Source: Okamejei kenojei
Taxonomy: Eukaryota
Assembly: GCA_035221665.1 (NCBI GenBank)
Contig: CM069156.1
Location: 28,396,001-28,460,000, forward strand
DNA: 64,000 nt
Direction: 5' to 3'
Under the pieces are notes generated by a model. That model saw nothing but the letters and a program-made list of their open reading frames with translations. It was not told the DNA's origin and did not search any database. Positions 3,313 to 54,555 of this stretch are shown piece by piece (the stretch's first letter is position 1; the number at the start of each line of letters is the position of its first letter). Both the position numbers and the translations under genes were made by a program.

Positions 3313-3478
3313 TTAATGTAAAGACGTTACACTGTCAGCTCTATGTAGTTTCGCCATGGAAAAAAAAAATCCTGTTTTTGGATGTGGAAGGTTATTTTGA
3401 TCACAGAGCTCCATCAGTGCTCTGTATGGAACTCGACTCTGCAGCCCAGAATGTCTAGTTATTGTTAGTGTTTCTGGG
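3313..3478 (-). CDS. Probable last coding exon of the unnamed TBC-like gene (PETLTITRHSGLQ...VTSLH*)
   Basis: Strong acceptor (tttcttcctctttag) and a phase-2 match to exon 6457-6572; open to TAA at 3313. An internal donor (AGT|gtaacg) is possible, so the gene may continue. Confidence 0.55.
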
Positions 3479-4009
3479 CTAAAGAGGAAGAAATAAAAAT
3501 CATATAAGAGCAATATCATTAATCATTATCAATGGACCATGCTGGAAATATAACGTTTAGAAAACTTCAGTTTTAACCTGGAATGAGTTTTGGTCTGACA
3601 GGGAGCACAGCAAATACTGAAAACCATTTCACCCCATCACTGTTCCAACTTTAACAGTGGGGCATTGATAATATTTACTGGACATATGATGGAGAAGAAT
3701 AGGTCTTTGTGCAACTAGAAGCTTACCAGCTTTTAGGTAAGTTGTGGCTAGAGGGGTGTTTAGGGTCTGGGAGGGTTTCGTGGAAAGGAAGGAAGGGTTA
3801 TGAAGAGGACGTTGGGATCCAGGAAAGCTCAATGCAGGTGATGCCTAAATTATCCTTTTGGCAACTGAAGGAGCATTCCTGTACTTTCTTACCTACATGT
3901 AAAGTGTAAATGAAAACTGTCTTACTAATTAATGTTTTTCCTGCTATCTCATTCTTGTAAGAAAGCCATAATATCTTCCTAGTTTCCCTACCTGAGCAAT
4001 TTTTGCCAT

Positions 4010-4790
4010 TGAGGAGTGTTTCCCCCCTCACCTTAAACTTATGTCTTCTGGTTCTTGATTACCCTACTCTGGGTAAAATACTCTGTGCATTTACCTTATC
4101 TATTCCCCTCATAATCTTATACACCTCTAAATGAACATGCCTCATCCTCCTGTGCTCCATGGAAAAATGTTCTAGCCTGCTCAACCTCTCCCTATAGCTC
4201 AGGCCAGCTCAGTCCTGACAACATCCTCGCAAATCTTTTCTGCACCCTTTCCAGCTTAACAACATCTTTCCTATAACAGGGTCACCAAAACTGAACACAA
4301 TACTCTAAATGTGGTTTTACCAATGTCTTGTGCAACTATAACATGACCTCCCAACTTCTGTACAATACTCTGACTGATGAAGGCCAATGTTCCAAAAGCC
4401 TTCCTGACCACCTTATCTACTTATGACGTCACTTTCAATGAATTATGTACCTGAACTCTGCTCTACACACCCCAGAGCCTTGCCATTCCTGTGCTTGCCC
4501 TGGTTTGATTTCTCAAAATGCAACACCTCTCTGTATTAACCTTCCACAGCCCACCAGCCCAACCGATCAAGATCCTGCTGCAATTTTTTACAACCATCTT
4601 CTCTATCTAAAATACCACCCACTTTAGTGACATTTGCAAACTTACTACTCATGCCTTGTACGTTCTCATCCAAATCAATGATATAGATGAAAAACAGCAA
4701 TGGGCTCAGCACCAAACACTTGGTCACTGGCCTCCAGTTTGAAAAACAACCTTCCACCATCACCCTCTTCTTCCTTTTTCTATCCAGTCA
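4010..4790 (-). mobile_element. CR1 LINE ORF2 3' fragment (resumes at about 5651-5706 after the L1-like insertion)
   Basis: Translation LFFIYIIDLDENVQGMSSKFANVTKVGG...LQQDLDRL is typical CR1 RT. Confidence 0.85.
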
Positions 4791-5650
4791 GTTTTTTTTG
4801 TTTTTTGTTTTGTTTATTTTTGTTAGAAGTAAGTACAGTAGTCTGGTACTTAAGTACCTAATACATAAATACATGTTCTCATTCTTGTACAACTTCATAA
4901 TTTTAGTTCAATAATAAAAGAACAGTGAGAGAAAAAAGAAATAAAGAGTGTCGGAATAGATAGACATGCGAGTAGAAACAGAAAACAAAAAAAAAGGACA
5001 GAGGTGAGAAGTTAAAAGATTGAAAGAGAAGGAAAAAGTAAAAAGAAAAGAGAGATTAGGAGAGATCTACCCATCTCATATTTTTGCCCATCCGTCACCC
5101 AGTTCTAAACATTTAATTTCTAAGGTTATGTTATGTTGCACCATATGCTTGTATAAAGTTGATAAACGGAGACCAAATCTTTAAGAATTGGTCTACTTTG
5201 CCTAGTAAGAGGAATCTCATTTCTTCAAGATGTAGCGTTTCAGACATGTTTGAGATCCACATTTTGAATGTTGGCGTAGGTGCGTTTTTCCAAAATTTAA
5301 GTGTTTTTTTTTCGCTGTTATTAGGCCATAATTAAGAAAAGCTTCTTGGAATATATTTGGAATATAGTTAGTTTACTTCCCTCTTCCATTGATCCAAAGA
5401 TAATCAATTCAGTATTGGGGTTCAATTTTGTGTTAAATAGTTTTGTAAAAATTCCAAAAATTTCATTCCAAAATGTATACAGTTTTGTACAAGAGACAAA
5501 GGAATGTGCTATACTGGCATTTTGAGTTAGACATTTGTCGCAGATGGGGGAAACATTTGAAAATATTTTATTCAGTCTTGTTTTCAAATAATATAATCTA
5601 TGTAAAATTTTTAATTGAATTAGGTTATGTCTTACATTCATTGAACATTT
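4791..5650 (-). mobile_element. L1/Tx1-clade LINE 3' end with A-rich tail
   Basis: ORF2 C-terminal Cys-rich segment QLKILHRLYY...PICDKC...HSFVSC; T-rich run at 4792-4823 is the tail; same family as 8650-9540. Confidence 0.8.
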
Positions 5651-6456
5651 AACTCTCCTTGGATCCTATGCGAACTAACCTTCCAGAGCAGTCTACCATG
5701 TGGAACAGTGAATACCTAATGTATTATTGATTAATGTGTATTTATTTGTGTGTTATTACGTTAAACGGCGTAGTAACCTGCTGAAGTTAGAATTTTATTG
5801 TTTCATTGCCAATACAAGAAACAATTATAATCTTGACTCCTGATTGATATCTTGGAATCCCAAATGGAGAGGGGAGGGGAAATTATGTCTAGTGGTGAAT
5901 CTCAATGAAAGTAGTAAAAATTGTAAAGGACGATCCATTGACTGCAGAGGCTGATGTGGTGAAGGTGAAGACCAGCAGAACTCTATCCTTGTTTTGGCTG
6001 GGGAAAGAGGAAGGAGAGTAGAGTTGCAGGAATTAGATCAGATGCAGTTAAGGGCTCTTTCAAGTATGGTAAAGGGAAGCCACAGTTCATGAAAAGGAAG
6101 ACATCTCAGAGGCAAAGATAATCCCCCCTGGGTTACTGGGAATTAAAAGCACATTCAGAATTATAATATTGTGCATCATATTTCGATCTCACATTTTACT
6201 CTGAATGAAACCAAACATTTTTAGCAGGGTTTATAAGATATTTTGGTACTTATTAGTTGCAATGTTGTTTTACACAATGTGGAGACTGAGGTTCATCTGC
6301 TGAGACTAGATTGATGAGGCAAGTGTGTATCATTGCTAATTTCAATTTAAGCCAACAAATGTGATACTGTGATTCAGGGCTGTTCTAAAGCCAAGAAATC
6401 TCCAAAATAAAACAATTCTGGCTTGCAGTATCCAAACAAATACAGAAACTCCTTAC

Positions 6457-6572
6457 TTCATTTTAAATTGGTTTAATCCAGGAATATCTGCTGGTAGGCC
6501 ACCTTGTTGTAAATGGATCCAAGATCTTTGAATATCTATTGTGTATAGATGGCTGGCATGAGAATAGAATAC
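6457..6572 (-). CDS. Exon of the unnamed TBC-like gene (VFYSHASHLYTIDIQRSWIHLQQGGLPADIPGLNQFKM)
   Basis: ttccctcag acceptor, gtaagg donor; 116 nt, phase 0 to 2, in frame with neighbouring exons. Confidence 0.88.
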
Positions 6573-8321
6573 CTGAGGGAAAGTATTTGATAAGTATCAA
6601 TTAAATGCATAATAACCAATTTGAAGACTAAGAGCCCTTCTTTATTGCACATTTTTTGTTGTGAGCATTGGCTGATAACATGGCTGCTTAACACTTCTCT
6701 TTTGACAACTCGAAAGTCAAATAACAGGCCAAACAATCTACAAATCACAAAGTGCTGAAGGGTTGCCACCCTTTAAAGGGTCCCAACCTGAAACGTCACC
6801 TATCCACTCTCTCCACAGATGCTGCCTGTCCCAGTAAATTACTCCAGCACTTTATGTTTTGTTCAACATCACAGTGTCTGTAGTTCCTTGTGCCAAACCT
6901 TCTAACTCACCTCATTTTGAAGTGGATACTCTCGCTCCTGACAATCAGGTGTGTTTCATTGGTACACATATATTGCAAGGTTGTGCATACAAAGTGAGGG
7001 TTGTTACATACCAAGTATCAAATACTACAGAACAAAAATAAAGTACAAATCCTTAAGTGCCCAAGCTTATGCTTTACACAAATCATTTTCAACTCCCATA
7101 TATTTTCTTGTCCAAACAAAAACATGCATGAAGAATTGTCTCAACCCGAAACATCACTCATTCCTTCTCTCCAGAAATACTGCCTGTCCTGCTGAGTTAC
7201 TCCAGCTTTTTGTGTATCTTTGGTTTCACAAAAACATGGGGAGATTGTCATGCACAATGGCGCACGGTTATCTCTATAGCAATAATATCCTAATTTTAAG
7301 TTATTAGTCATACAGAGCCTTTGAAATACTTTGTTAAGATTATTTCTATGGTGAACGAGCATATTTTAAAGTTCAATTTAAGACTTAAATTTGTATGAGT
7401 GCATCGCTGGTTTCTTGCATTTTGAGTCTGAAGAAGGGTTGCGACCTGAAACATCACCTGTCAATTCCCTACCCAGATACTAAGCTTCTCCAGCACCTTG
7501 TGCTTTGCTCAAGATTTCAGCAACTGCAATTTCTTGTGTCTGCATCTCAAATCTTTAATGGCCCTTGAAACAATTAAATCCGGTTACGCCAGAGGGTACT
7601 GCCAATGTACATTTCTGATTTTCATTTGCCACATAATAAAACATTAACAAAAACAAAGACGGGTAATTTCTGTTAGTCTGTATTTTTAATAAAATAATAA
7701 ATGCTTGCATACCTGACAGAAAGTCAGGTTCCAAAAAGGAAGAGGTCATTTGGCTTCACTGCTTTCACACTCCCACCCTTCATCCCTAAATGCAAGGTGC
7801 ACCAGTAGTAATTCTTGCAGCAAAGAACTAGGCCAAAAAAAGCTATTCAATTGTTTTTAAATGACATAAAGAAGCATAATGGAAGGTCAGCAATCTAAAA
7901 TGTTAAGTCTGTTTATCATCCCGCAAATGCTGCTTGACCTGCTGAGTAATTCCAGCTTTTTCTGCAGATGCATCAGTAGTTTTTTGCTTTTCTATTAAAG
8001 TTGATGTTTAACTATTTCCTTAATAAGATTCTGGATTATTTTAATTTTTATTATAGAGATAAATTTATAGGTGCCTAGTTTTGTTTTAGATTCAAAAGTA
8101 TATGCTTCTCAATGTTATTTCATGTTTTTTAAATGTTGTCTCCTGTGCTGATTATTTTCAGCATTTTCTGTTCTTATTTTCAAATTCCATTTTGGCAACC
8201 TTTTATTGTGCTGTGCTGTGAGCTTCACCTGTGAATTCAATTTCTTTTTTTTTTTTTTTAATCATAGTGAATAGGTGGAAAGTATGAAAGGAGTTTAAGG
8301 CAATAATATTTTTTATCTTAC

Positions 8322-8483
8322 TTGTTTCAGACTGTGATGATCATCAGACTCTATCAAAGGTTCCCTCAGTAACAAGAGGATTGTCAGGCAGAAATCTTCC
8401 ATCACCCGCGGCTTCCAGTCTTGCATAAAGAGTTGGTCCCAGATCAGCAACATGGCTGGCATGTCCAAGATGCCTACAAACCC
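8322..8483 (-). CDS. Exon of the unnamed TBC-like gene (GFVGILDMPAMLLIWDQLFMQDW...SLKQ)
   Basis: ccatag acceptor, gtaaga donor; 162 nt, phase 0 to 0; contains the TBC C-terminal L.IWD..F motif. Confidence 0.92.
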
Positions 8484-8649
8484 CTATGGCACACAGGCAG
8501 TTGAGTGAAACAATTTACTGCCCATCCAACAGTGTAATGTATGTCAATTCACAATGCGTTATGCCAATCAGATAGATTCAATCCCTAATCTATGCTTAGT
8601 TTTTTTTAATATACTGTAGGCATTACAATTGTTCTCAATGATCTCAGGT

Positions 8650-9540
8650 AGAAAAATGATTTTAAATGTGGGAATTCATATTAAATATAGAAATATCATC
8701 ACCCGATAGAATTAGAAGAGATTGGGAACAAGAACTAGCTATAAAAAACTCGAAAGAGAGTTGGGATAAACACTTGCTATATGTGCATAAATGCTCGAAC
8801 AATGTAAGACATATTCTAATCCAATGTAAAATCCTACATAGATTATATTATTCAAAAACTAAAATAAGTAAAACCTTTCCAAATGTTTCCCCCATTTGTG
8901 ATAAATGTCTATCTCAAGAAGCAACTATAGTACATTCCTTTGTTTTTTGCATAAAAATCCAAAAATTTTGGAATGAAAATTTTGGAACAATGGAAGTCGG
9001 CTTTGAGCTGACTTTGTTCCAAAAGAGTTTCCTTAATTATGGCAAAAAAACTCATACTTAAATTCTGGAAAAACGCTCCCACACCAATGGTAAAAATATG
9101 GATTTCAAATATGTCTGAAATGTTACACCTTGAAGATATGAGATTCGTCCTAGCAAGCAAATCAGACCAATTCCAAAAGATTTGGTCTCCATTTATCGAT
9201 GTATTATAAGCATAGGGTGCAACATAACTTTGAAAATAAACAGTTTCAGGACCTGGTGAGGGGTGTGTAAAGATATGAAGTAGGTACATCCCTTTTATCT
9301 TATCTTATTTTCTTATATTTTCATTTTTCTATTTTTCTCTTTCCTTTTTTTTATTCTTTCTCATGTTCTACGTCTCTACGGGTTCTTCCTTTTCACGCAC
9401 TTACTATCTTATCTAACTTTCTCTATTTTTCTTCTTCTTAGAGTTTAAAACAAGTAGTGGTACATGAAATGTATTATGTTATTTTTGGCTTATACTACTG
9501 TAATGTACATTACTTCTAATAAAAATAAATTAAAACAAAT
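8650..9540 (+). mobile_element. L1/Tx1-clade LINE 3' end
   Basis: ORF 8666-9061 WEQEL...QCKILHRLYY...PICDKC...HSFVFC; pyrimidine-rich 3' UTR, AATAAA and A-rich tail at about 9518-9540. Confidence 0.8.
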
Positions 9541-9766
9541 ATATATTTTTTCCCTGCAATCCCAAGTGATGTATATGCAGAAGATGGCTGTGTGAAAGAC
9601 CTGTGCTGATATTGTGTAGTCCAACAGCTCATTGCGTAGGCTTACACATAAAAAGGGAACTATGTGTGTGAGGTATCTAAAGAATGCAAAGTGCCTATTA
9701 AATTAGCAAATAAGATACTGCCTTTGCTAAGAAGCACAGGAAGTAAAGAAAAGGAATGAAAGACAT

Positions 9767-10150
9767 AAGAAGACACAAGGAAATGCAGATGCTGGTTTAC
9801 AAAAAAAGACACAGAATGCTGGAGTAACTCTGCGGGTCAGGACCCTTCTTCAAAATTATTATGCTGGGGTGGTAGAAAGTTGGACAAGAGGTGGGGACAG
9901 GACAAAGCCTGTTGCATGTAACCACCAGATAGGTGGATACATGCAAGCAGAGATTTTGATGGCAGGTTGGACAAAGGCAAGATGAAAACACAAAAAGTGT
10001 GAAATAAAGGTAGAAGAGGAGCAAATTGTGAAGCCAGAGGAAGGAATCTAATTGAAAGGGGATGGGGGAGGCCGAAGGGAACTTATGGACGCAAATCCAC
10101 GTGGGACACAGGGAAGAGAGGGGGCAAGGAAGGAAGAAAAAAAAAGGAAT
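9767..10150 (-). mobile_element. Penelope-derived short element (terminal-repeat fragment)
   Basis: Shares gatgctggttt...gctggagtaactc.gcgggtcag with the Penelope termini at 60280-60380 and 62450-62570. Confidence 0.6.
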
Positions 10151-10213
10151 GTACGACTTGCATTTATAATGCAGCTTTCATCATTCCCAGAACCCACTGA
10201 ATATTTTCCTTAC

Positions 10214-10357
10214 CTCTCCGATCCATTTCCTGAGGAGTATGATTGGGTTTTTCAGCAATTCTTTGCTTATGTGTTGCATATTTTCAGAGTTGTGCCCAAT
10301 ACTATGGAATTGCTGAACCTGTGTCTTTTCACACTCAACTTGCTCCAGTAGGAATTC
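10214..10357 (-). CDS. Exon of the unnamed TBC-like gene (EFLLEQVECEK...LLRKWIGE)
   Basis: ttctctaatcag acceptor, gtaagg donor; 144 nt, phase 0 to 0. Confidence 0.9.
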
Positions 10358-10544
10358 CTGATTAGAGAAATGAAAAGGCATTAACTGAAGTAGGGATAGT
10401 GTGGAATGGGGCAGCTCATTTCCTAAAACATTTTCATGATGAAAAGTCAGCAAGGAAGGATCGAAGCTTTTCAATAACAGCTGCTCTCAAGTTCTAACAA
10501 AGAGCCCTGGACCTAAAAAGATATTGATTTTTTTACCACAGATG

Positions 10545-11130
10545 CATAGCATATAGAACAGGACAGGAACAGGTCCTTCGGCCCGCAATGTCCATGCTGA
10601 ACATGATGCCAAGTTAAGCAAAGTATGCATGCATATAATCCATATCCCTCCATTCCCTGCATATCCATGTGCTTATCTAAAAGCCTCTTAAAAGCCGTTA
10701 TCATATCTACCTCCACCCCTGGCAGAGTGTTCCAGGCATCCACAGCTCTCTGTATAAAAAACGTGCACCAACACATCTTCTTTAAAGTTTGACCCTCTCA
10801 CCTTAAAACTATGTCCTCTAGTCAGTGACATTTCTCTCCTGAGCAAAAAGTTCTGATTGTCTACGCTGTCTATGCTCTCACAATCTTATAAACATCTATC
10901 AGGTCTCCCTTTGGCCTCTGACGCTCCAAAGAAAACAAGCTACCTTTGTCAAACCTCTCCTTATATCTAATATCCTCAAATTCAGGCAGCATTCTAGTAG
11001 TCCTATCTCCTTCGCTCCTTAGATGCTGCTGCACCCGCTGAGTTTCTCCAGCCTTTTGTGTACCTTCGATTCTCCAGCATCTGCAGTTCCTTCTTTAACA
11101 CGTTTTCTAGTAAATCTCTTCTGCACGTGA
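10545..11130 (-). mobile_element. CR1 LINE 3' fragment with a Penelope-type short element inserted at about 11000-11100
   Basis: FFIQRAVDAWNTLP...FKRLLDKHMD is the CR1 ORF2 C-terminus, followed by its 3' UTR. Confidence 0.8.
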
Positions 11131-12104
11131 TATGTTGTGTATTTCCAGTATTTCCTGTTGTTATTGTACCTTGCACAGTTTAGGAAAACTAGGCGTGTTT
11201 ATATTCTTGGTATGCAGCCTCACTAAATGATTTCAAATACAGTGGACAGTCAGTACGGCATGCCAAAGTCTCATTTATTAATTGCTAGGTGATTGTAATT
11301 ATCAGAGATCTTCCAGTTTTCTAATCCTCTCTCCCTTCCAATCAGGCTACATTCCATGAAAGCACAGTTTTGCAAATAGACTCATGTCTATTTGATGCCT
11401 TTTCCTGTCTTAAGTGCACCAGTAACTTGAAATATTTTGAAATGTAACAAACATTTTGATGTTATAGATTTATTAGATTGATATAAATTAACCAGCTGTG
11501 TATAAGCAATGTTAGCAATAACATTAGTTGAATCAAAACCCCTAAGATGGGACGTTTCAGATTTTTTTCACAAGTAGGTGTTAATTATTTTCCACCTGAT
11601 TTCCAATCATCACTCCAATTCCTGGCACTTTGCCCTCAAGGTATGACACTATCCCATATGCCTTGATTTGCTAATTTCCTCTCCTAATCCCCCAATCAAT
11701 TGTTCCTCCCACCTGCCCCATGGCGCCAACTCCTGAAGCCTTGATGCCCCTACCTTTACCCATCATCTGCTGGCCCACAATTACTATAAATTCACTCTTC
11801 CACCTAGTTTCAAAGTCCTTCTGGAGCTCCAAAAAGCACCCGACTACCTCCACTCACTCTATGTTGATGCATATCTTGCTTTCTACACCCTTTGGCCCTG
11901 ATTGAAGAATATCACCACTCCCCGATGGTCACAGCAAACTTGTCAAGCTTTTAGCATCCTACCAAACATAGATCATTATTAACCAATATTATGATGATAG
12001 ATCCATGACATAAACAGTTGTGGTCTTATTGCATTACTCCAGTTTATTCACAGTTATAGGGTTATTCTTCATTATCCTGGTCTTTGATGTCAATTAATTC
12101 TTAC

Positions 12105-12283
12105 TTTGGGATCAATTAAGGCATTCTTGGTGAACGAAGAATGAAGGTGAGCAAAGAGTACTGGGTCTTCATTTCCTAAACGATTCATCACTTTTTCAGC
12201 CATTCCAAAAACTTCCGGCCAAATTGGGAATACATTGTCAATGAGCAGGTGCAGATACATTGCCAACTCATACGGATGTTCAG
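12105..12283 (-). CDS. Exon of the unnamed TBC-like gene (EHPYELAMYLHLLIDNVFPIW...EDPVLFAHL...IDPK)
   Basis: gccacag acceptor, gtaaga donor; 179 nt, phase 1 to 0; DPxLxxHL is a TBC hallmark. Confidence 0.92.
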
Positions 12284-12589
12284 CTGTGGCACACAAAATA
12301 GATGTTTGTACAATTGGATGAATTTGAAATTATCAACTACCTCTCTATGATCCAACCTCATGCTATGTTAGAATCTTCTCTTTTCTCTGAATTGCTTACA
12401 CTGGCTTACTGCCTCTCTGAACTTTTCTATCATTTTCTTCCTACCCTTATTCTTTTTCCTGTCCCATCATCATGTTGAAAATCACAATATTCTACTTAGT
12501 AACAATAACGTCTATTCCCGTAGCATTGTAATGTAGCAGTGCAGAAACACCAAATTGCATCACACAGGACACAATAGTGCAAAGTCAAT

Positions 12590-13012
12590 GAGGTAGGATT
12601 TAAGGAGTATCTTAAAAGAGGAAAAATACATATCTGTATAGAGATGGAGAGAGAGGGAATTTCAATGTTTAAGGTCATTGGCAGTTGTGGTTAAATTTGA
12701 ATATGATCAAGAGGCCAGCAGAACATTGGTATCTCAGAATGTATAGAGCTGGAATGGATTACTGAGAAGGGTGTGATCATGGAGGGATTGGAAAATAAAG
12801 ATAGGAATTTTAAAACTCGGAAATTGCTTAACTGATGCTTAATCATAACTCAGCAAGCACAAAGTATATAGTAAATAAAATGCGGTGCAATGCAGTATGA
12901 GGACCAGACGTTTGGATGATGTCAAGTTCGAATAAGGAAGACTGACCAAGAGTGCATTTGAACGGTTAAGTCTGGAGGCAACAAAGACATTGCTGAGGAT
13001 TTTATTAGTCAA
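12590..13012 (-). mobile_element. Old L2-like LINE remnant, interrupted by the Helitron
   Basis: ttttaaggagtatcttaaa...gagggaattt pattern also seen at about 51270-51480; purine-rich decayed sequence. Confidence 0.45.
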
Positions 13013-13113
13013 CTAGACTAAGTGGGACCAGTTGGGTCCCAGCATCACACAGGAGGGCTGGACCCCCAACGCAATATTTTACCTCTCCACCAATTCCAAT
13101 ATTGGTGGCCAGT

Positions 13114-13145
<32 letters not shown>

Positions 13146-13337
13146 GGGGGTTCTGGAGCGCTAGTATGGGCGTTGTGGGCTGAAGAGACTGGTTTCCAGA
13201 TGGCTAGTATGGACATTGTGGGCCTAATGGATTTTTGGGCTGGTGGCTCAGTCACTCAAGCCTGTTGTGCTGGCAGCTCACTCACTCACGGCTGGTGGGC
13301 TGGCAGTTGACTCACGGCTATTCCTTGAAATTGCATT

Positions 13338-13458
13338 TCAAGTAGGGTGCAAGGCCACCAAATTCAAGTGCAGTTTCTTACCACTTCAAGCAGGGTGCAA
13401 GGCCACCAAATTCAAGTGCAGTTTCATACCATTTCAAGTAGGGTGCAAGGCCACTAAA
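13338..13458. repeat. 48-bp tandem repeat, about 2.5 copies, inside the Helitron
   Basis: tcaagtagggtgcaaggccaccaaa units start at 13338, 13386 and 13434. Confidence 0.9.
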
Positions 13459-13821
13459 GACAGCGAGTCGTGACCTCTCCCTCCTCCATCTTGCAGAGAC
13501 TGATCCACACCCACACTTCTGGGTTTTATAGTCCCACCCCACCTCCCACCAGAAGGGGCGTGGCCTTCATGGCGTGACTGACAGGAGAGAGAATCTCAAC
13601 ATTTTTTAAACACTAATAACTCTTTTATTTTTCATCGATGGGAAAAATCCTCGGCACCCGATGAGCGGAGGGGGACTCTGAGTAAGATGGCCAAAAATCA
13701 CAGCCATACATGGTAGCGTTTTTTCTAAAATCAATATAAAACGCAAACAGAAAGTGGTCAAGATTAGACTTTTAATTATATAGAAGGCAAGGCAACTTTA
13801 ATTAGCAAGGCAACTTTAATT

Positions 13822-18573: not shown

Positions 18574-18742
18574 GCTTGGATGATGCATTTTTAAAAGCAA
18601 TCTGAAGAGGAAAGAGCCAGTATATTAGGTGTGGTTGGTATGTTCCATCATAAACGTATAGGACATTGAGTGCTTTGCTGGCTTCTAAAATCATTTGCTC
18701 ATTTGTGGCAAAGGGCTGCATGCAGGGTGTCTTTTCAAATTT
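18574..18742 (-). CDS. Exon of the unnamed TBC-like gene (KFEKTPCMQPF...GTYQPHLIYWLFPLQIAFKNASSK)
   Basis: aaacag acceptor, gtgagt donor; 169 nt, phase 0 to 1. Confidence 0.92.
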
Positions 18743-19256: not shown

Positions 19257-19380
19257 CTCAACTACAGCATTTTCTACTAGTCCTGAAATAGGAGAACGTG
19301 TCGCACTTCTCAGTTTCAGTTCAGACACTCTGCGTTCAAGTACCCACCCAAACCTTTCCCTGGTAGTTTTTTCAACACTT
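19257..19380 (-). CDS. Exon of the unnamed TBC-like gene (SVEKTTRERFG...SPISGLVENAVVE)
   Basis: ttcttcacacag acceptor, gtgaga donor; 124 nt, phase 2 to 0. Confidence 0.92.
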
Positions 19381-19945: not shown

Positions 19946-19992
19946 CATCAGCTATTTATAATATTGAAATGATATGACAAACAAATTCTTAC

Positions 19993-20218
19993 TCTACTGA
20001 AGCTCTGGTCTGGTACTTTTCATTCATTTTCAGCAGCTTATCCAGCCAAATGAAGCTTCTTAGTGTCGATGGAAGCAACTTTCCTTTCAGTTGTTCACTA
20101 ACAGCAAGCATCTGTTCACGATCTGACCTGAGGACAGCACAGACAGAGGTTCCAAGTACCTCACTCTGCACACAGCTCAGCGCTGGAGGGTTCAACTTGG
20201 GACTCGGGTTGTTGCCAT
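19993..20218 (-). CDS. Exon of the unnamed TBC-like gene (GNNPSPK...GKLLPSTLRSFIWLDKLL...RASV)
   Basis: ttgcag acceptor, gtaaga donor; 226 nt, phase 1 to 2; LPSTLRSFIW matches the TBC N-terminal (I/L)PxxLRxxVW motif. Confidence 0.92.
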
Positions 20219-21730: not shown

Positions 21731-21875
21731 CATTCAAATTTAATTGAAATTCAGATCGTCTCCGCATTGTCAGGTGCAAATCTTTACTCTCCACTGATTT
21801 TGGGCGTCTTCCAACCAATTCTGCCCATGAGAACTGTCGTGTTGCTGAGTTGTGTGCCAAATCAGAGTCATAATC
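21731..21875 (-). CDS. Exon of the unnamed TBC-like gene (DYDSDLAHNSATRQFSW...QLNLN)
   Basis: ttattcccacag acceptor, gtaata donor; 145 nt, phase 0 to 1. Confidence 0.85.
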
Positions 21876-27521: not shown

Positions 27522-27634
27522 ATTTTGCTTTGCCTCGTGTCTTGCCAGTAGCTGTTCCATCTCCATGAAAACCAGTTTGTAGGTGTCATCAATGAAGTTA
27601 ATCATCTCAGATGATACGTCAGAATAATCACCAG
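27522..27634 (-). CDS. Exon of the unnamed TBC-like gene (GDYSDVSSEMINFIDDTYKLVFMEMEQLLARHEAKQN)
   Basis: aaccacag acceptor, gtaata donor; 113 nt, open only in phase 1, which matches the upstream exon end. Confidence 0.85.
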
Positions 27635-36054: not shown

Positions 36055-36085
<31 letters not shown>

Positions 36086-37244: not shown

Positions 37245-37359
37245 CTAGCCTCCTTTGGCAGCCACACTTTTCAGCTGTCTTCAGCACAATTTCATGTAAC
37301 CACACTCTTGTATCCTGAACTAAGCCCTCATGGTGATCAATGTCCATATTGGGTGACTG
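37245..37359 (-). CDS. Exon of the unnamed TBC-like gene (QSPNMDIDHHEGLVQDTRVWLHEIVLKTAEKCGCQRRL)
   Basis: Pyrimidine tract plus tag/cag tandem acceptor, gtaaga donor; 115 nt, phase 0 to 1. Confidence 0.85.
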
Positions 37360-41982: not shown

Positions 41983-42126
41983 CTGTATACCAGGCTGCTC
42001 CAGATGGCTGATGTGCTTTTGTACAAAAGGACGTCCCAAAAGCTGTAGAATTATCTGTCTTCGTTCAGAATTCTTCAATTGATCCTCAATTTCACAAACA
42101 AGGGCAGATTCTAATTTTTCATAAAC
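41983..42126 (-). CDS. Second coding exon of the unnamed TBC-like gene (VYEKLESALVCEIEDQLK...EQPGIQ)
   Basis: ttttaaactcag acceptor, gtgagc donor; 144 nt, phase 0 to 0. Confidence 0.85.
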
Positions 42127-44464: not shown

Positions 44465-47400
44465 TTTGGCGAGTCGAGACAGTCGGGTCCAATAAAGTTC
44501 TTTATTTTTTAAACAAAAATAAAGTGATTACCCGAGTCGATATTGTCAGCCAAAATAAATGACGCTCACTCAAACCGCGTGGAGCTGGAATGAATGGTTT
44601 TACAGAAAAACCTGCGAAAACGCACCCCCGCTCACATGACCGCGCCAGCCAATAGCGAGGGTTCGACATTACCAGGGCCACCGCTAGGTGTCGCTACAGG
44701 ACACCCCCCCAGAACCCGAGGTACGGAACCGTGCGTGAGGTTGGACACGGCGACCGCAATGTGTGGTAACAACGGACGGGGCGGGAGATACAGGTGGGGC
44801 TGGCAGAACAGAGCCAGGACAGTACCAATATATGGTACATATTGGTACCAATGACATAGGTAAAAAAAGAGAAGAGATCCTGAAAGGAGAATTTAGGGAG
44901 TTAGGAAGAGAATTAAGGAAAAGAACTGCAAACATAACAATCTCAGGATTACTTCCTGTGCTACGCGACAGTGAGAGTGGGAATGGAGCAAGGTGGAGGA
45001 TAAATGCCTGGCTGAAGGACTGGTGCAGAGGGCAGGGATTCAAGTTTCTGGATCAATGGAACCTCTTTTGGGGAAGGAGTGACCTGTATAAAAAGGACGG
45101 GTTGCACTTGATCCCGAGGGGGACCAGTATCCTGGCAGGGAAATTTGCAAAGGCTACCGGGGGGACTTTAAACTAGAACGGTTGGAACGAGGGACTCAAA
45201 TAGAGAAATCCAGTAGACAGGGTCTGAGGCAGGAGGCAGAGAAGGGAAGCACTCAGACCCAAAATATAGGGGGGAAAGAAAAAAATAAATAAACAGAGAA
45301 TAAGACGTGGTGGGTTTCCAGGGCAAAAATCAAAAGGGACCACTTGTCAGCATAATTGTATAAGGAGGAAGAGTGTTGTAAAAACAAGCCTGAAGGTTTT
45401 GTGTCTCAATGCAAGGAGCATTCGTAATAAGGTGAACAAGTTGAATGTGCAGATAGTTATTAATGACTATGCTATAGTTGGGATCACGGAGACATGGCTC
45501 CAGGGGGACCAAGGCTGGGAGCTGTAGAAAGAAAGGAAATGGAGGTGGGGTAGCGTTGCTGGTGAGAGAGGAGATTAATGCAATAGAAAGGAAGGACATT
45601 AGCTTGGAGGATGTGGAATCAATATGGGTAGAACTGCAAAATTTTAAGGGGCAGAAAACGCTAGTGGGTGTTGTGTACAGGCCACCTAACAGTAGTAGCG
45701 GAGTTGGGGATGGCATCAAACAGGAAATTGGAAATGCGTGCAACAAGGGTAAAACAGTTATAATGGGTGACTTCAATCTACATATAGATTGGGTGAATCA
45801 AATAGGCAGGGGTGCTGAGGAAGAGGATTTCTTGGAATGTATGCGGGATAGTTTTCTATACCAACATGTAGAGGAACCAACGAGAGAGCAGGCTATTCTA
45901 GACTGGGTATTAAGTAATGAGGAAGGGTTAGTTAGCAGTCTTGTTGTGCGGGGCCTCTTGGGCAAGAGTGACCATAATATGGTTGAGTTCTTCATTAGGA
46001 TGGAGAGTGACATAATTAAGTCAGAAACAAGGGTTCTGAACTTAAACAAAGGTAACTTTGAAGGTATGAGAAGTGAATTGGCCAAGATAGACTGGCAAGT
46101 GATTCTTAAAGGGTTGACAGTGGATGTGCAATGGAAGGTATTTAAAGACTGCATGGATGAACTACAACAATTGTTCATCCCAGGTTTTGCAAAATAATAA
46201 ATCTGGGCAGGTAGTGCATCCATGGATAACAAGGGAAATCAGGGATAGTATAAAAACAAAAGATGAAGCATAGAAATTAGCCAGAAAAAGCAGCTTACCA
46301 GAGGACTGGGAGAAATTCAGAGTTCAGCAGAGGAAGTCAAAGGACTTAATTAGGAAAGGGAAAATAGATTATGAAAGAAAACTGTCAGGGAACATAAAAA
46401 CTGACTGCAAAAGTTTTTATAGATATGTGTAGAGAAAGAGATTAGTTAAAACAAATGTAGGTCCCTTGCAGTCAGAAACAGGCGAATTGATCATGGGGAA
46501 CAAGGACATGGCAGACCAATTGAATAACTACTTTGGTTCTGTCTTCACTAAGGAAGACATAAATAATCTGCCGGAAATAGCAGGGGACCGGGGGTCAAAT
46601 AAGGTGGAGGAACTGAATGAAATCCAGGTTAGCCGAGAAGTGGTGTTGGGTAAATTGAATGGATTAAAGGCCGATAAATCCCCAGGGCCAGATAGTCTGC
46701 TTCCCAGAGTACTCAAGGAAGTAGCCACAGAAATAGTGGATGCATTAGTGATAATTTTTCAAAACTCCTTAGATTCTGGAGTAGTTCCTGAGGATTGGAG
46801 GGTAGCTAATGTAACCTCACTTTTTAAGAAAGGAGGGCGAGAGAAAATGGGAAATTACAGACCAGTTAGTCTAACATCGGTAGTGGGGAAACTGCTGGAG
46901 TCAGTTATTAAAGATGGGATAGCATGGAGAACCAGTGGATGTGTTATATCGACAAGGTCCCACATAAGAGATTAGTATACAAACTTAAAGCACACGGTAT
47001 TGGGGGTTCAGTATTGATGTGGATAGAGAACTGGCTGGCAGACAGGAAGCAAAGGGTAGGAGTAAACGGGTCCTTTTCAGAATGGCAGGCAGTGACTAGT
47101 AGGGTACCGCAAGGCTCAGTGCTGGGGCCCCAGCTATTTACAATATATATTAATGATTTGGACGAGGGAATTGAATGCAACATCTCCAAGTTTGCGGATG
47201 ACACTAAGCTGGGGGGTAGTGTTAGGTGTGAGGAGGATGCTAGGAGGCTGCAAGGTAACTTGGATAGGATGGGTGAGTGGGCAAATGCATGGCAGATGCA
47301 GTATAATGTGGATAAATGTGAGGTTATCCACTTTGGTGGCAAAAACAGGAGGGTAGACTATTATCTTAATGGTGGCAAATTAGCAAAAGGGGAGATGCAA

Positions 47401-50041
47401 CGAGACCTGGGTGTCATGGTACACCAATCATTGAAAGTAGGCATGCAGGTGCAGCAGGCAGTGAAGAAAGCAAATGGTATGTTAGCATTCATAGCGAAAG
47501 GATTTGAGTATAGGAGCAGGGAGGTTCTACTGCAGTTGTACAGGATCTTGGTGAGACCACACCCGGAGTATTGCGTATAGTTTTGGTTCCAAATCTGAGA
47601 AAAGACATTCTTGCCATAGAAGGGGTACAGAGAAGGTTCACCAGACTGATTCCTGGGATGTCAGGACTTTCATATGAGGAAAAACTGGATAGACTTGGCT
47701 TGTACTCGCTAGAATTTAGAAGACTGAGGGGGGATCTTATAGAAACTTACAAAATTCTTAAGGGGTTGGATAGGCTAGATGCGGGAAGATTGTTCCCGAT
47801 GTTGGGGAGATCCAGAACAAGTGGTCACAGTCTAAGGATAAGGGGTAATTCCTTTAGGACCGAGATGAGGGAAACATTTTTCACGCAGAGAGTGGTGAGT
47901 CTCTGGAATTATTTGCCACAGAAGGTAGTTGAGGCCAGTTCATTGGCTATATTTAAGAGGGAGTTAGATTTGGCCCTTGTGGCTAAAGGGATCAGGGGGT
48001 ATGGAGAGAAGGCAGGTACAGGATACTGAGTTGGATGATCAGCCATGATCATATTGAATGGCGGTGCAGGCTCGAAGGGCCGAATGGCCTACTCCTGCAC
48101 CTATTTTCTATGTTTCTATGTTTCTATGTAATGGTGCAGGAGGAACAGAAACAACAGGTGAGAGGGGAACAGGCACAACAGGTGCGACCGGACCGGTCAG
48201 TGGAGGTTGCGCCGCCACCTCCGGGCTGTCGACATTCAGGTGGGCCGGCTTAAGTCGAGCGACGGAGACGATCTCCTCTCTGCCCCCGTCGTCCAAAAGG
48301 AAAGTCGCGATGCCGGGTCGCAACACCCGGAACGGACCCTCGTAGATTCACTGCCGTGGGGACCGCTGCGAATCCCTGCGGATAAACACCAATAGGCAGT
48401 TCTTAAGGTCCGGCGCCACATGCACTGGGGCAGTCCCATGCCGTGAGGTAGGAACAGGGGCCAGGCCGCCCACTCTCTCCCGGAGACTCGCCAAAACCGC
48501 TGAGGTAGACTCCGGCTGCCCTCGAACCGCAGGGAGGAAATGCCCGGGCACCCGCAAAGTCGAGCCATATACCAACTCGGCGGACGATCCATCCAAGTCC
48601 GCTTTAGGGATGTGTAGATGCCTAACAGCACCCAAGGCAACTGGTCGACCCAGACTGGACCTGTGAGCCATGCCTTCAGAGTCGATTAGAGTCGATTTCA
48701 GGTGGCGGTGGAATCGTTCCACTAACCCGTTGGCCTGGGGGTGATAGGCGGTGGTGTGGTGCAACTGCGCCCCATATAATTTTGCCAACGAAGCCCACAA
48801 TGTGGACGTAAACTGAATCCCCCGGTCGGTGGAAACATCTGCCCGAACCCCGAATCTAGCAATCCAATGGGCTGTCACTGATCCATGACTGTGAGGAGAT
48901 GCGTGGCACCGCAGGACGGCGGTAACGGACCCACTAAATCCACATGGATGTATTGGAAACAGCACGATGCAACCACAAAGTTTTGCACTGGGGCTCGTAC
49001 ATGACGCTGAACCTTGGGTGTCTGGCAGGGGATGCAGGTTCTAGCCCAAGCCGCGACCTGCTTGCGGTGGCCCTGCCAGACAAATTTGTCCACCACCAGC
49101 GCGGAAGTCGCCCGAATTGAAGGGTGAGCCAGGCCATGGATGGCGTTGAAAATCCAGCGGCGCCAACCCGCAGGAACAATGGGGCGTGGGCGCCCGGTGG
49201 AAACATCGCACAGTACCAACGCTCCTGTGGAGCCAAACAGAAAGTCGGCCAACCGCAACCCTGAAGCGGCCGTCCTGTAGCCATCCATCCTGTCGTCTGA
49301 GCAGCAAACTCCACGTAAGCCACACCATGGTCCACGGACGCCACAGCCGGTAGGGCCGGGCGGGACAGGGTGTCGGCGACCGTGTTGAATTTCCCGGCCA
49401 CATGCTGTACGTCTGTCGTGAACTCTGACTCGAATGCCAGGTGTTGTAGTCAGTAAAAGCCGTGAACGGCCTGCCCTCCAGGAAGTATCTAAAGTGACGG
49501 ATGGCCAGGTACAGTGCGAGGAGCTCCTGGTCGAACGCGCTCGGGGGGTCCTCAGCTCACGGCTGAAAAAGGCTAGCGGCAGCCAGTGGCCGTCAATGAA
49601 CTGCTCCAACACCCCACTCAAGGCCTTATCGGAGGTGTCTGCCGCGTGAGCAGTCAAGGCTGAGGTCTGCAGGTGTACCAGCATGGTGGCTTTGGCCAGC
49701 ACCTCTTTCGCGCCGTCGAACACGGCCTCAGCGTCCGTGGACCACACAAGGTCCCGTGGCTTACCAGCGGGGCACTGAAACAGGGGGCACATGATCCTGG
49801 CGGCCGCTGGCACGAAACGATGATAGAAGTTAACCATGCCGACAAACTCCTGCAGCCCATTTAGTGAGCGGCCTGGGGAACTGCCGGATGGTCACCTTAG
49901 ATGGTCACCTGCGAGGTAACATGGTGCCCCAGGAATGAAATTGTGCTGGCATTTGGCGGGATTGACTACGAGTCCATGGTCCTCGAGCCGCTGGAACATC
50001 GCCCGCAGGTGCGTGAGGCGTTCCTGTTAGCAGCGGCTACA
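44465..50041 (-). mobile_element. Truncated Gypsy LTR retrotransposon (part of RT, RNase H, integrase, PPT, 3' LTR), split by a CR1
   Basis: GMVNFYHRF, PLAFFSR, H-H-C-C zinc finger (HGLAHP..CIPCQ), HVDLVGPLP, TDRG.QF and TTAYHPQANGLVERFHR; G-rich PPT at 44699-44710; LTR 44465-44698 starts TGTAGCG; CATG on both flanks. Confidence 0.9.
44830..48128 (+). mobile_element. Near-full-length CR1 LINE (ORF1 SGNH-esterase end, ORF2 endonuclease-RT, 3' microsatellite), inactivated
   Basis: HIGTNDIG..DGLHL esterase; GVVYRPP, GDFN and SDHN endonuclease; KSPGPD, GNYRPVSLTS, VPQGSVLGP and KFADDTK RT; (TTTCTATG)3 tail; frameshifts and internal deletions near 45525 and 46925. Confidence 0.95.
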
Positions 50042-50695
50042 CATGTTTATAAGATCTCCCATGATCAATGGGCATATTGGCCAGACTGCGTGCTTCCTTC
50101 AAGAGTTACAGTGGAAATTAAAGTGTTGCCCAACTCCTTAGACAACATGCCTTGGAAGTGATGCAGAGGGTTTTGTTGAGGCTTGTCCCGGACAGCTGAA
50201 CAAAATAGGACACTGGGCTGTTCCCATGGATTGCACACTGAGACATATATCAACTGTTGCTGGAAAACCAGTGCAATGTGTCTCCTGGCCTGCCTGAAAT
50301 TCACTGATGCAAAGGTATAATCCACAGATGAATGCTATAAATAGACACATTCAAATATCCACAACTGAGTGCTAAGTGTCATGCTGAAGCTCAATGCAGC
50401 CAGTGCATGGGCTCTATGGGAAAGAACTACAGTTCATTGCACATTAATTAGCTGAGTGTTTTAAAATCCTGTGAACTATTTGCTTTAAGGTTGAATAGAA
50501 ACAATAACTATGATGTGCTAATTTTAAGCAATGGAAATAACAACCTGTTATGAAAATATTGAATTGAGTGTTATATATTACATTTCCATTTTTCATGATA
50601 AAGTACATTTTGAAATTAAAGAAATACTTTTCCAGTGATGGTATTTATATCGCTGAATACAATTTAAAAAAAAGACAATCCAGTCATATACTGAC

Positions 50696-50818
50696 CTTGT
50701 GCCATGGTTTGCCTGGGAATAATGTCTCCTGCAGGCTTGAGTCCAGCCAATCCATCTTGAATGGATGGTTATTCATGTCGGATCCCAGATGATATCCAGT
50801 GCTTTTTGAGATACTCAT
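50696..50818 (-). CDS. First coding exon of the unnamed TBC-like gene (MSISKSTGYHLGSDMNNHPFKMDWLDSSLQETLFPGKPWHK); exon extends as UTR to 50851
   Basis: attgcag acceptor at 50852-50854, in-frame TGA TGA just upstream of the ATG, gtcagt donor; phase 0 joins VYEKLE. Confidence 0.75.
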
Positions 50819-52869
50819 CTGTCATCAATAACCTCTGAGCTTTGGATTTAACTGCAATATCAACACTGATAAGTTAGCTTAAGATTTAAGAAATGTTCTA
50901 TGCTGGGCCTCTGCATTATTAAAAAATAGGAAAAAGGGTGATTATGATAAATAATGTTAAATAATTAGGTAAAAGTTATTTTTATATCCATTGTAACAAC
51001 TGGTTATAATATTATTTATTACAGTGAGACCTTTATCACGCTCTTTGACTACCGAACTATCATAGCCAACCCAGAATATTTTTCCTTCCGGTACTTGTAC
51101 ATGATCATGTTATGCATTTATTAATTCTTCCATTGGAACCATGGAATAGTTCAGCTTTGCTCAATCACCTTTAGTGCCTGAAAACATTCCAAGATACTTT
51201 TACCAAAGCACTATGAGACAAAATTTGATCTTGATCCATGCAAGATGATATTATGACCAGCATGAGGTACATTTTAAGATGTCTTTTAAGGGATGGGAGA
51301 GTTGGAGACAGGCATAGAAATTTAGGAAATGTATTCGATTGTTTGTGTCAGGACTGCTGAGCACTAATAATAGAATGTGAAAATGTATAAAATGCAAGAA
51401 TTGGAAGAAGGGTTCAGAGATTATGCACTCAAGGGACGTTTTGAAAATAAAGACGAGAATTGTAAAACAAACCATAAGCATCATAGGTTACATTCTTAGA
51501 CTGAGTTACCTTGGGAACTACATACCGGGTAACTATAAATTTTAACACCGTTTGGCTGCTGATATGAAAACAAAAAGATCTTAAATCAAAACCTTTGCAA
51601 CAACTTCAGTGACAGATTTTTTTCCCGCCTTTCCTTCTTTCTAATGTTGTATCTTTAGAAAAGAGGAGGATCTCAGATTTAGTCTCTTTGTGCTGAATTA
51701 ATTGAGCTCAGAGGGGATATCAGAATAGAGAGACTACAAATTGCGCAATGAAAGGAAATAAAAATTGTATTTGCAATATCTGCTGAAATATATTCCAATA
51801 GAATGGATTTACCTGGATATATCAATTCAATCATCATGCACACTTGCCAGTGGAATCAAAGGCAAGCATGGAACTGAAGCCTTTGTTTGGATAGGGGAGG
51901 AGAGAGAGGATTGGGGAGAGGTGGAGAGAATAAGTAAAAGTAAAAGGATATTTTAGAAAAATAGTTGGGAGCTTTCCAATGGAACAACTTGCTTTCTTAT
52001 TCTGAATAATAGGGTAAAATATATTTTTATTAAGAGATATTTTAATAGAATACAATCTCTTAATATTTTACTCTATTAACTCTTAATAGTTAAAAAGAGT
52101 TACACATTAAGAGACAAATATTGCTGCAAATAGAATTGGATTTTGCATCATATAAGTGGTCAATAACAAAGTAAAATTATCCAATGTGCTTCTCAAAAAA
52201 CTTTAATTAAACACAATTTAATGACATGTCACATAAAATGATTGAAAGCTGGTATGGACAGAATGGGCTAATTAGGCTAAATGGCCTTCCGTGCATTAAT
52301 CATTCCACAATTCAATAAAATGGGGTGGAAGATTGCAACCTTCACGTTTCATCTAATGCAATCAATTCGATGTGCACAAACGGAAGATCAAATAGAACAA
52401 GTTGTCCTACAACTTTAGGCTGTGCACGCCACACAAAATGATCATATTGAATGGCGGTGCAGGCTCGAAGGGCCGAATCGCCTACTCCTGCGCCTATTTT
52501 CTATGTTTCTATGAAAGAAGAAGATTCAATAAAATGAGCAATGCAGAGTCAAAATGATAGATTTGCTAAATAAGGTAGAAGAGGCGAAGAGTCTTTAGCA
52601 TTGGAATTTCGTTGATTAGTTAGTTGTAGGTATGACAGCCAAATAATGGAAATCGAGGAAGTAGTAACAATCAGAACTGAAGAGCACTGAGATTTTGGAG
52701 AGCTGAAAGACATTGCAGACATAGGGAGAATTGGAAAAGCGAGGGTAGAACTAATTAAACACAAAAAAAAACAAGGATTAAAATGGCATGTTATGACATT
52801 TTGCAATGTATAATTTTTCATCCGAAATTTCTGAAACCGCAACATTCACTCAGCAAGGCATTATTTGTC

Positions 52870-53190
52870 AACTGTGGTTCAGTCTTGCCTCTGAGTAAGA
52901 AGGTTGTGGGATCAATTCCAACAGCACAGAACTGACCACAAAAATATAGTGCTGCTCTCCAGTGTAGGTTTGAGGGATAGCTAATTTTGGAGATGTTTGA
53001 TTTCAGACACAATGTCAAAATACTTTCTTGGGTATCTACAAAAGATCCCAATGGTGACCCGGGGTCAATGTTGTTCCCATAATTATCAGATTATCTATTA
53101 AATATATATAACAGTTTGTGGGTTCTTCTCCTCAGGCACACAATTGCTGCTGCATTGCCCATACACTAACCACAATCATACTTCAAAACA
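52870..53190 (+). mobile_element. Old tRNA-head Deu-domain SINE-like element
   Basis: cttgcctctgagt.agaaggttgtggg.tcaa.tcca head, then aaagatccca.tgg and gtttgtggg..ctt..cacaaattgctgctgcatt core. Confidence 0.55.
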
Positions 53191-53206
53191 AAACCTTACT
53201 GCTTGT

Positions 53207-53416
53207 AAGTAGATAAAAATGCCGGAGAAACTCAGTGGGTGAGGCAGCATCGATGGAGCGAAGGAACAAGTGACGTTTCGGGTCGAGTCTGAAGAAGGGT
53301 CTCGACCCGAAACGTCACCTACTCCTTCGCTCCATAGATGCTACTTCACCCGCTGAGTTTCTCCAGCATTTTCATCTACCTTCGATTTTTTCCAGCATCT
53401 GCAGTTCCTTTTTAAA
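53207..53416 (+). mobile_element. Palindromic Penelope-derived mini-element with a hammerhead-like core and a 12-bp TSD
   Basis: Inverted arms at about 53209-53286 and 53302-53379; core CTGAAGA-GGGTC/GACCC-GAAA-CGTC at 53289-53316; cttactgcttgt at 53195-53206 and 53417-53428. Confidence 0.85.
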
Positions 53417-53487
53417 CTTACTGCTTGTTAAGAATGTTGCGACATCCTGACGAAGTTACCAGGTCCATAAATAAGTACAACTTTCTT

Positions 53488-53845
53488 AGAAACATAGAAA
53501 ATAGGTGCAGGAGGGGACCATTCGGCCCTTCGAGCCAGCACCGCCATTCATTGTGATCATGGCTGATCGTCCCATTTCAATAACCCGTGGCTGCCTTCCC
53601 CCCATATCCCTTGATACCACTAGCCCCTAGAGCTCTATCTAACTCTCTCTTAAATCCATCCAGTGATTTGGCCTCCACTGCCCTGTGTGGCAGGGAATTC
53701 CATAAATTCACAACTCTCAGGGAGAATTTTTTTTTCTCACCTCAGTCTTAAATGACCTCCCATTTATTCTAAGACTGTTGCTCCTGGTTCTGGACTCGCC
53801 CAACATTGGGAAGAGAACCAGGGGCCACATCTTAGAATAAAGGGA
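53488..53845 (-). mobile_element. CR1 LINE 3' end with a short 5' inversion
   Basis: CR1 tail at 53488; 53813-53841 is inverted relative to 53763-53791. Confidence 0.85.
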
Positions 53846-53988
53846 AAGTCTTGTTAGATTGTAGAAGTGGGTTTTGTACCGTTAAACCTATGGACTGACA
53901 TTTTAACAATATAGCAAAAAAAAACCCACAGGAAAATTGACATTGCAAGACATATTAACAAAGGGTGTTAATTTAATAACAAAACCTC

Positions 53989-54202
53989 GGGTAGACAAAA
54001 GCAAAGATACTAGAGTATCCTCTAGTATCTTTGGACAAAAGTGCTGGAGAAACTCTGCGGGTGCAGCAGCATCTATGGAGCGCAGGAAATTGGGACGAAA
54101 CGTTGCCTATTTCCTTCGCTCCATAGATGCTGCTGCACCCGCTGAGTTTCTCCAGCACTTTTGTCTACCTTCGATTTTCCAGCATCTGCAGTTCCTTCTT
54201 AA
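53989..54202 (+). mobile_element. Palindromic Penelope-derived mini-element with a 10-bp TSD
   Basis: acaaaacctc at 53979-53988 and 54203-54212; inverted arms at about 54034-54090 and 54109-54165. Confidence 0.8.
54002..54033. mobile_element. 32-bp hAT-like micro-MITE (14-bp TIRs, 4-bp spacer, 8-bp TSD)
   Basis: CAAAGATACTAGAG-TATC-CTCTAGTATCTTTG flanked by GACAAAAG at 53994-54001 and 54034-54041. Confidence 0.8.
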
Positions 54203-54242
54203 ACAAAACCTCTGGGTCTGGTGCCAAAAGTGCAGCGTTTAC

Positions 54243-54555
54243 CTGTTCACTGCTCCCGTTGCTATAGCAACCAACGATACCAGAGGAGCGGGGCGACGTT
54301 GAGCGTCATTGCGTCGGGATGCAATAAAAAATACTTTTCTTTTCATGTATTAAATATAGAGAGAGCACTGTTATTCACCCAAAAACGAACCCTAACTGTA
54401 GACTGCGACTCGTTGTGTTTTTTTAAAGGTGTACATACACATTTCTTAAAGCTTTAGCTGTAACCTATGACCTGCTGTGAGGCGGTTTGTGACCGCGGCC
54501 GAGGAAATGGCTGCTGGGGGTTGAGGGAGGCGGCGGGCGCCGGGCTCTCGCCAGC
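54243..54555. promoter_or_regulatory. CpG-rich bidirectional promoter and 5' UTR region shared by RNFT1 (+) and the TBC-like gene (-)
   Basis: The only non-repeat CpG cluster noticed in the window; minus-strand donor CAG|gtaaac at 54242 and the RNFT1 ATG at 54556 are about 310 bp apart. Confidence 0.75.
54258..54271. promoter_or_regulatory. RFX-binding X-box (perfect palindrome GTTGCTATAGCAAC)
   Basis: Fits the X-box consensus GTNRCY-AT-RGYAAC and lies at the 5' end of the minus-strand gene. Confidence 0.75.

Follow-up and report, generated by a model that had tools for sequence, protein, structure and literature searches.

A finger-less TBC and C2 domain protein of an undescribed subfamily in the skate Okamejei kenojei

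A 64,000-nucleotide stretch of the Okamejei kenojei genome (GenBank assembly GCA_035221665.1, contig CM069156.1, positions 28,396,001 to 28,460,000 of the forward strand; hereafter the window) carries on its minus strand the start of a gene with 29 coding exons, encoding a protein of approximately 1,364 amino acids (aa). The protein has a predicted complete TBC domain, followed by tandem C2 domains, and belongs to an undescribed subfamily of pseudo-GTPase-activating proteins (pseudo-GAPs) with a new domain layout, whose function we infer. By sequence comparison, this is an ancient animal gene that is conserved across bilaterians and annotated in databases but undescribed. Our reading, to which we give a probability of about 0.45, is that the protein is a finger-less TBC and C2 protein that serves as a non-catalytic membrane scaffold, probably in RFX-driven ciliated cells.

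An initial annotation of the window had chained 13 GT-AG exons on the minus strand, from an ATG at 50818 to a TAA at 3313, into a protein of about 640 aa. Twelve of these exons (50818 to 6457) are conserved and form a chain in phase. The thirteenth (3478-3313) matches no homologue (best E 0.17 for its peptide among 65 homologues), and the 641-aa product was reproduced only by adding it. Searching with exon 6 retrieved five cartilaginous-fish proteins of 1,134-1,349 aa, which were mapped back onto the genome. They cover the 12 exons in the window, 16 more in the 150 kb to its left, and a last exon of 12 codons, so that 17 exons follow exon 12 and the tandem C2 half of the protein had been missed. 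The 28-exon chain has AG/GT borders throughout, consistent phases and 1,352 codons without a stop, and exon 29 brings the product to its full length. Exons 13-29, also GT-AG, in frame and without a stop, lie at -2818 to -83797 relative to the window (G000:C26:28393182 down to 28312203), and the gene thus extends 84 kb beyond the left edge. The gene is strongly conserved, as had been expected: the protein shares ~95% identity with a skate RefSeq "uncharacterized" protein and is identical to Leucoraja P0098 at 1,277 of 1,338 positions and to Scyliorhinus P0005 at 940 of 1,334. The gene is single copy in the O. kenojei genome, where a stricter first look found no paralogue (26 of 26 matches at this locus). 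The coding exons and related features of the window are as follows.

54243 to 54320, minus strand: candidate 5' non-coding exon, CpG-rich, donor after 54243 (from sequence only)
50696 to 50818, minus strand: coding exon 1, ATG at 50818; a second ATG at 50776 is the start in most homologues
41983 to 42126, minus strand: coding exon 2, N-terminal region (homologue mapping)
37245 to 37359, minus strand: coding exon 3 (homologue mapping)
27522 to 27634, minus strand: coding exon 4 (homologue mapping)
21731 to 21875, minus strand: coding exon 5, low-confidence linker (homologue mapping and model)
19993 to 20218, minus strand: coding exon 6, TBC domain begins
19257 to 19380, minus strand: coding exon 7, helix with degenerate Arg-finger site (A327 and E330 in model numbering)
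18574 to 18742, minus strand: coding exon 8, K331/K334 (alternative finger register) and Gln-finger site Pro367
12105 to 12283, minus strand: coding exon 9, TBC
10214 to 10357, minus strand: coding exon 10, TBC with low-confidence insert
8322 to 8483, minus strand: coding exon 11, TBC C-terminal subdomain (the portion detected by Pfam PF00566)
6457 to 6572, minus strand: coding exon 12, TBC domain ends; spliced to exon 11 in an RNA-like contig
1 to 6456, minus strand: intron 12, which exits the window; exons 13-29 (C2 domains, C-terminus) lie beyond
3313 to 3478, minus strand: exon 13 of the initial annotation, a chance in-frame intronic stretch, unconserved

Reads from four runs of one study, presumed by guess to be RNA, were checked over exons 11-12 and the 3313-3478 region. 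The proposed junctions are supported in part, as at least one RNA-like contig (record 22 of run X3) is spliced from exon 11 to exon 12 and runs on for another 69 letters. That the 641-aa TBC-only protein is the main product is highly improbable. It has an open frame with an AG acceptor, and runs X1 and X2 show low depth there (0.57 and 0.47 in the 3368-3584 bin). However, its tail is found in no homologue, conserved exons follow exon 12, and the spliced X3 contig leaves exon 12 in a run with depth 0 over 3368-3584 and on the 3478-3313 stretch itself. Record 14 of X2 reads unspliced into intron 12. A minor isoform may use 3478-3313. Separately, the C-terminus of the RefSeq protein of Amblyraja (P0001) maps out of order to an intronic stretch at window-relative -40823 to -40929 (L005), and the end of that RefSeq model therefore looks like an annotation or assembly artefact.

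The divergent TBC fold proposed by the initial annotation was confirmed by structural comparison, and the motifs it had quoted are located on the minus strand at 20075, 19280, 18646, 12170, 10.2 kb and 8465. The comparison was based on an AlphaFold model of P0001 (94% identical to the window model) and a separate TBC-only model (predicted local distance difference test score 86.7, predicted TM score 0.85); the folded part of the full protein runs from residue 121 to 130 residues short of its C-terminus. The predicted domain matches solved TBC structures end to end, with Z scores of 22.3 for TBC1D22A, 21.6 for Gyp1p, 20.9 for USP6NL, 18.2 for TBC1D23, 16.7 for TBC1D7 and 14.6 for TBC1D24. Twelve TBC rows score above Z 14, and the first non-TBC row scores 7.3. 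Identity to the structurally matched TBCs is only 9-16% and no paralogue stands out. When the PDB was searched by sequence, neither the family profile nor the Lottia protein gave any hit at E up to 10. Pfam, which had been named as a check on the fold, gives a mixed picture: the curated cut-off of PF00566 is passed by none of the five cartilaginous-fish proteins and by three of 10 other orthologues, and just the C-terminal 55-70 residues of the domain are detected, often under cut-off. Within the protein, conservation is still highest in the TBC domain (27% of columns at least 90% conserved), implying that a binding role has been kept.

TBC Rab-GAPs catalyze GTP hydrolysis with an IxxDxxR arginine finger and a YxQ glutamine finger. 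Both are altered in the orthologues, in line with the non-canonical motifs first reported. Among 48 orthologue rows, 46 carry residues at these sites. The Gln-finger site is Pro in all 46, and the Q in GTYQP falls at the middle, variable position of the motif, where 36 have Glu. For the arginine finger, two registers one helical turn apart are possible. The first places the site at A190 and E193 (P0001 numbering), with a 37-residue spacing to the Gln site as in two canonical TBCs of the same genome; the corresponding spacing in Gyp1p is 35 (PMC3676764). The second uses K194 and K197, with a spacing of 33 and the site at the helix end. The Asp of IxxDxxR is found in 0/46 under both registers, and the Arg in 0/46 or 8/46 depending on the register. 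Neither IxxDxxR nor YxQ occurs in any of 88 further TBC-bearing relatives, in which, by register, Asp is present in 1/59 or 1/62 and Arg in 1/62 or 8/61, and Gln occupies the Gln site in 0/65. Control TBCs of the same genome retain both fingers. An HHalign comparison of the family TBC profile with six single TBC exons of the same genome gave nothing significant (best probability 1%), and thus did not fix the register. Judging from these residues, the protein very probably has no GAP activity. Elsewhere in the genome, two near-identical TBC exons lie ~1 Mb apart (L017 and L018, G000:C1:102007925 and C1:100955969), and may represent a recent duplication or a false haplotype duplicate.

The regions of P0001 at 477-663 (C2-1) and 706-857 (C2-2; ~700-857 in the searches) are C2 beta-sandwiches in the model. 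C2-1 matches AIDA at Z 11.3, and PI3K C2 domains also match. C2-2 matches C2 domains at Z 8.3-9.2, including Munc13 C2 (9.2) and DOCK8 DHR-1 (8.5). A further region at 946-1095 is all-beta in the model, has a weak PI3K_C2 score in one orthologue and is a probable third C2. Ca2+-binding C2 domains carry five loop aspartates; in C2-2, D715 and D722 are present in 41/41 sequences and D787 in 34/41, and a presumed register places Thr and hydrophobic residues at the remaining putative Ca2+-ligand positions. For the C-terminal half, the ESM Atlas gave leads to NPHP4-like clusters (0.93 and 0.92) and AIDA C2 (0.91), among others. Several distant family members lack C2-1 by profile.

Canonical TBC Rab-GAPs, including Gyp1p, TBC1D22A, USP6NL, TBC1D15 and RABGAP1L, share the whole fold with the skate protein (Z 19-22, root mean square deviation 3.3-4.1 over ~260-290 residues). 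Unlike them, the skate protein combines its low identity with the lack of IxxDxxR and YxQ and with a tandem C2 tail. Tandem C2 folds are shared with NPHP4, AIDA, CCDC33 and PI3K-type C2 proteins, as Atlas and fold leads rather than orthology, and no TBC domain is known in any of these. Finger-less TBC classes have scaffold roles, and none is known to carry C2 domains. The skate protein resembles these classes in its missing fingers, whereas its fold scores against TBC1D23, TBC1D7 and TBC1D24, the members compared directly, are the lower ones given above. One or both fingers are missing in classes TBC-H (TBC1D19), -I (TBC1D23), -J (TBC1D7), -K (TBC1D24) and -L (WDR67) (PMC3655817). The term "C2 domain" occurs 0 times in the text of that paper, whose supplements may list an unclassified member. 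The three C2 domains of CCDC33 are needed in Xenopus cilia (PMC12796433).

Two word-based searches retrieved 65 and 50 proteins, 63 and 40 of them with names. These relatives are from sharks, rays, gar, bowfin, sturgeons, bichir, eels and tarpon, from amphibians, turtles, lizards and alligator, and from amphioxus, acorn worms, echinoderms, molluscs, a brachiopod, nemerteans and Owenia. An exhaustive search found 510 representatives at E up to 0.001. The best 150 of the 510 were inspected and 133 were new; the alligator protein was the best hit for none of these. Organism names were obtained for 10 of the 133: coelacanth, lungfish (2), Caretta, Varanus, Limulus, Penaeus, Schistosoma, Seison and Intoshia. 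No mammal, bird, clupeocephalan teleost, insect or nematode appears among the named relatives in these limited searches (best 150 of 510), and from the sequences the gene was likely lost in mammals, birds, most teleosts, insects and nematodes. Consistent with the initial annotation, no TBC1D name occurs among the 63 and 40 named hits or in cluster look-ups. No source gives a fitting name, and two stray labels, "pinin" and "ANK2", were met. The gene is already in RefSeq as "uncharacterized LOC" in many species, a fact absent from the initial annotation. A quick tree of 30 rows broadly matches the species tree. Relatives were also found at 12 metagenome loci. One of them, L031 (L031:143-2746), is a single open reading frame of 63% GC encoding 867 aa, with an E of 4.5e-50 to the family TBC profile. 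Its layout is that of the family and its Gln site is likewise Pro; it branches far off and possibly comes from a unicellular eukaryote; P0268 has the same Gln-site loop. L030 and L031 form long branches of unsure placement in a tree with the metagenome loci. Two relatives, P0067 from amphioxus (the one named ANK2) and P0066 from Lingula (with two TBC stretches), seem to be fused or duplicated gene models. A literature search of main texts, with supplements and subscription papers outside it, found no description of the family, and looking up 12 gene ids gave one passing mention. Apparent loss of the gene from mammals and birds is the likely reason why it escaped notice.

The ciliary part of our reading starts from the promoter, which the gene shares with a head-to-head neighbor.

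54258 to 54271, no strand assigned: RFX X-box, a perfect palindrome (GTTGCTATAGCAAC), within the shared promoter region (pattern match)
54556 to 62175, plus strand: RNFT1-like membrane RING ligase gene, with exons near 54556, 58650-59147 and 62100-62175; RING exons lie further right (L043)

The X-box is 15 bases from the candidate first donor of the gene, and is the only strict match in the window (0.02 expected) and in 214 kb. The pattern has 654+711 strand matches genome-wide vs 286+312 for a reversed control; the site was spotted post hoc, and the pattern tried first, with a 3-base spacer, gave 0 matches. The X-box is the most enriched motif at multiciliated-cell promoters (PMC5245798). The Xenopus tropicalis orthologue LOC100490302 has a log2 fold change of -2.96 (adjusted P 3e-10) in SUV4-20H-depleted caps (PMC10147948 Table S3), a drop of ~8-fold in a setting where cilia tufts fail. 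In that table it ranks among cfap99, ak7 and dzip1l, and in the control rows (PHF8 alone and LacZ) it is unchanged (adjusted P 0.97 and 1.0). One isoform of a Xenopus orthologue is at +6.8 in mucociliary caps vs the whole embryo (PMC6158741 Table S5), and the X. laevis orthologue marks cluster 37 only (22.5% vs 0.4% of cells; PMC9314398). The gene ids are absent from 12 of the 17 supplement files of Quigley and Kintner, where no chromatin immunoprecipitation or knockdown row for the gene was seen, and from one supplement file each of PMC10081853 and PMC13057974.

A GAP fold that lacks fingers, yet is more conserved than the rest of the protein and is joined to several C2 domains, most plausibly forms a membrane-anchored platform for binding. 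In this view the C2 domains would dock the protein on a membrane, leaving the TBC surface to bind a small GTPase or another partner without turning it off. A membrane scaffold role is probable, and the scaffold or Rab effector role suggested initially remains the best reading of the predicted structure. The ciliary or basal-body setting, slightly favored, is suggested by the X-box, the three Xenopus table rows and the NPHP4-like leads. Several points weigh against the combined reading. The arginine finger may lie in either of two registers, the C2 matches are generic, PI3K-type no less than ciliary, and both cap data sets use the same explant system, in which epidermal cell types are not separated. 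Shrimp retains the gene and decapods have no motile cilia, while mammals have many ciliated cells and seem to lack it. The turtle orthologue is detected in blood RNA (PMC12687789), cluster 37 bears no label in the main text of PMC9314398, and 2,246 genes, many non-ciliary, fall in the SUV4-20H knockdown (PMC10147948). The X-box may also serve the RNFT1-like gene, whose X. laevis counterpart is up 2.1-fold with multicilin (adjusted P 0.12; PMC5245798).

The blood expression, shrimp retention, broad knockdown effect, generic C2 matches and shared promoter would fit an adaptor for non-ciliary trafficking comparable to TBC1D23 or TBC1D7, in which a dead GAP fold links vesicles or complexes within a specialized epithelial or secretory cell and the X-box belongs to the neighbor. 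The position of the X-box beside the gene's own donor, the company of cfap99, ak7 and dzip1l, and the NPHP4-like leads argue against such an adaptor, which we consider somewhat unlikely. Unlikely, too, is a structural role in the centriole, basal body or transition zone that involves no GTPase partner, like that of the TBC-fold chains of the centriole A-C linker. The fold matches do include a TBC-fold chain from the Tetrahymena A-C linker (Z 14.4), and for the whole model Foldseek ranks first a chain from a ciliary-tip central pair entry (E 3e-7); the paper on that entry describes a C2 protein (PMC11642885). However, these matches are weaker than those to ordinary TBCs and tie with generic C2 domains, and loss in several lineages would be odd for a core structural component. 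The protein could instead be an atypical but active GAP for a Rab or Rab-like GTPase, with other conserved residues (E188, E193, Y228, or Arg/Lys at 197; P0001 numbering) taking the catalytic part. In favor of this, conservation is high in the finger helix and loop and position 197 is Arg or Lys in 24/46, but it is N, S or Q in 22/46, the Gln site is Pro, and the acidic E193 cannot serve as an Arg finger, which makes this quite unlikely.

The gene sits between MED13, downstream on the same strand (PF06333 at C26:28.10-28.12 Mb), and the RNFT1-like gene, a name we presume from likeness and X. laevis gene order. An exon at window-relative -138.7 kb is presumably the MED13 N-terminal exon. X. laevis MED13(-) and RNFT1(+) are 138 kb apart, with no gene between them among the rows listed (PMC5245798 file 7), and the X. 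tropicalis orthologue is on Chr02 (PMC10147948 table). Intron 1 contains two elements that we take, from their likeness, to be a long interspersed nuclear element (LINE)-type endonuclease/reverse-transcriptase (RT) copy (45478-48029, plus strand) and a decayed gypsy-type RT/RNase H/integrase remnant (48236-49891, minus strand). Retroelement remnants with RT, RNase H and tyrosine-recombinase-like pieces, presumably DIRS-like, lie at 403-2121 and at window-relative -100398 to -96850 (L011/L010). The first intron of the RNFT1-like gene holds an imperfect, GC-rich tandem repeat (56113-57126) in which both strands have long open frames. Nine X-box-like 14-mers are arranged in tandem at ~45-base spacing at G000:C1:280846-281232.

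This gene adds an unclassified subfamily to the TBC proteins, with a domain layout that we found described nowhere. It illustrates how a whole trafficking or cilia gene could stay hidden if it is lost again and again, in human, mouse, chicken, zebrafish, fly and worm. It is possible, if doubtful, that the TBC-C2-C2-C2 pseudo-GAP is a ciliary-membrane or basal-body module that most animals have and that has so far been missed. In view of L031 such a module might predate animals, and it would have been lost independently in mammals, birds, most teleosts, insects and nematodes. Because of these losses it would be invisible to nearly all model-organism cilia catalogues, and could be tested in Xenopus. 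The Xenopus genes (LOC100490302 and LOC108708284) would offer a clean test case for the role of a finger-less TBC.

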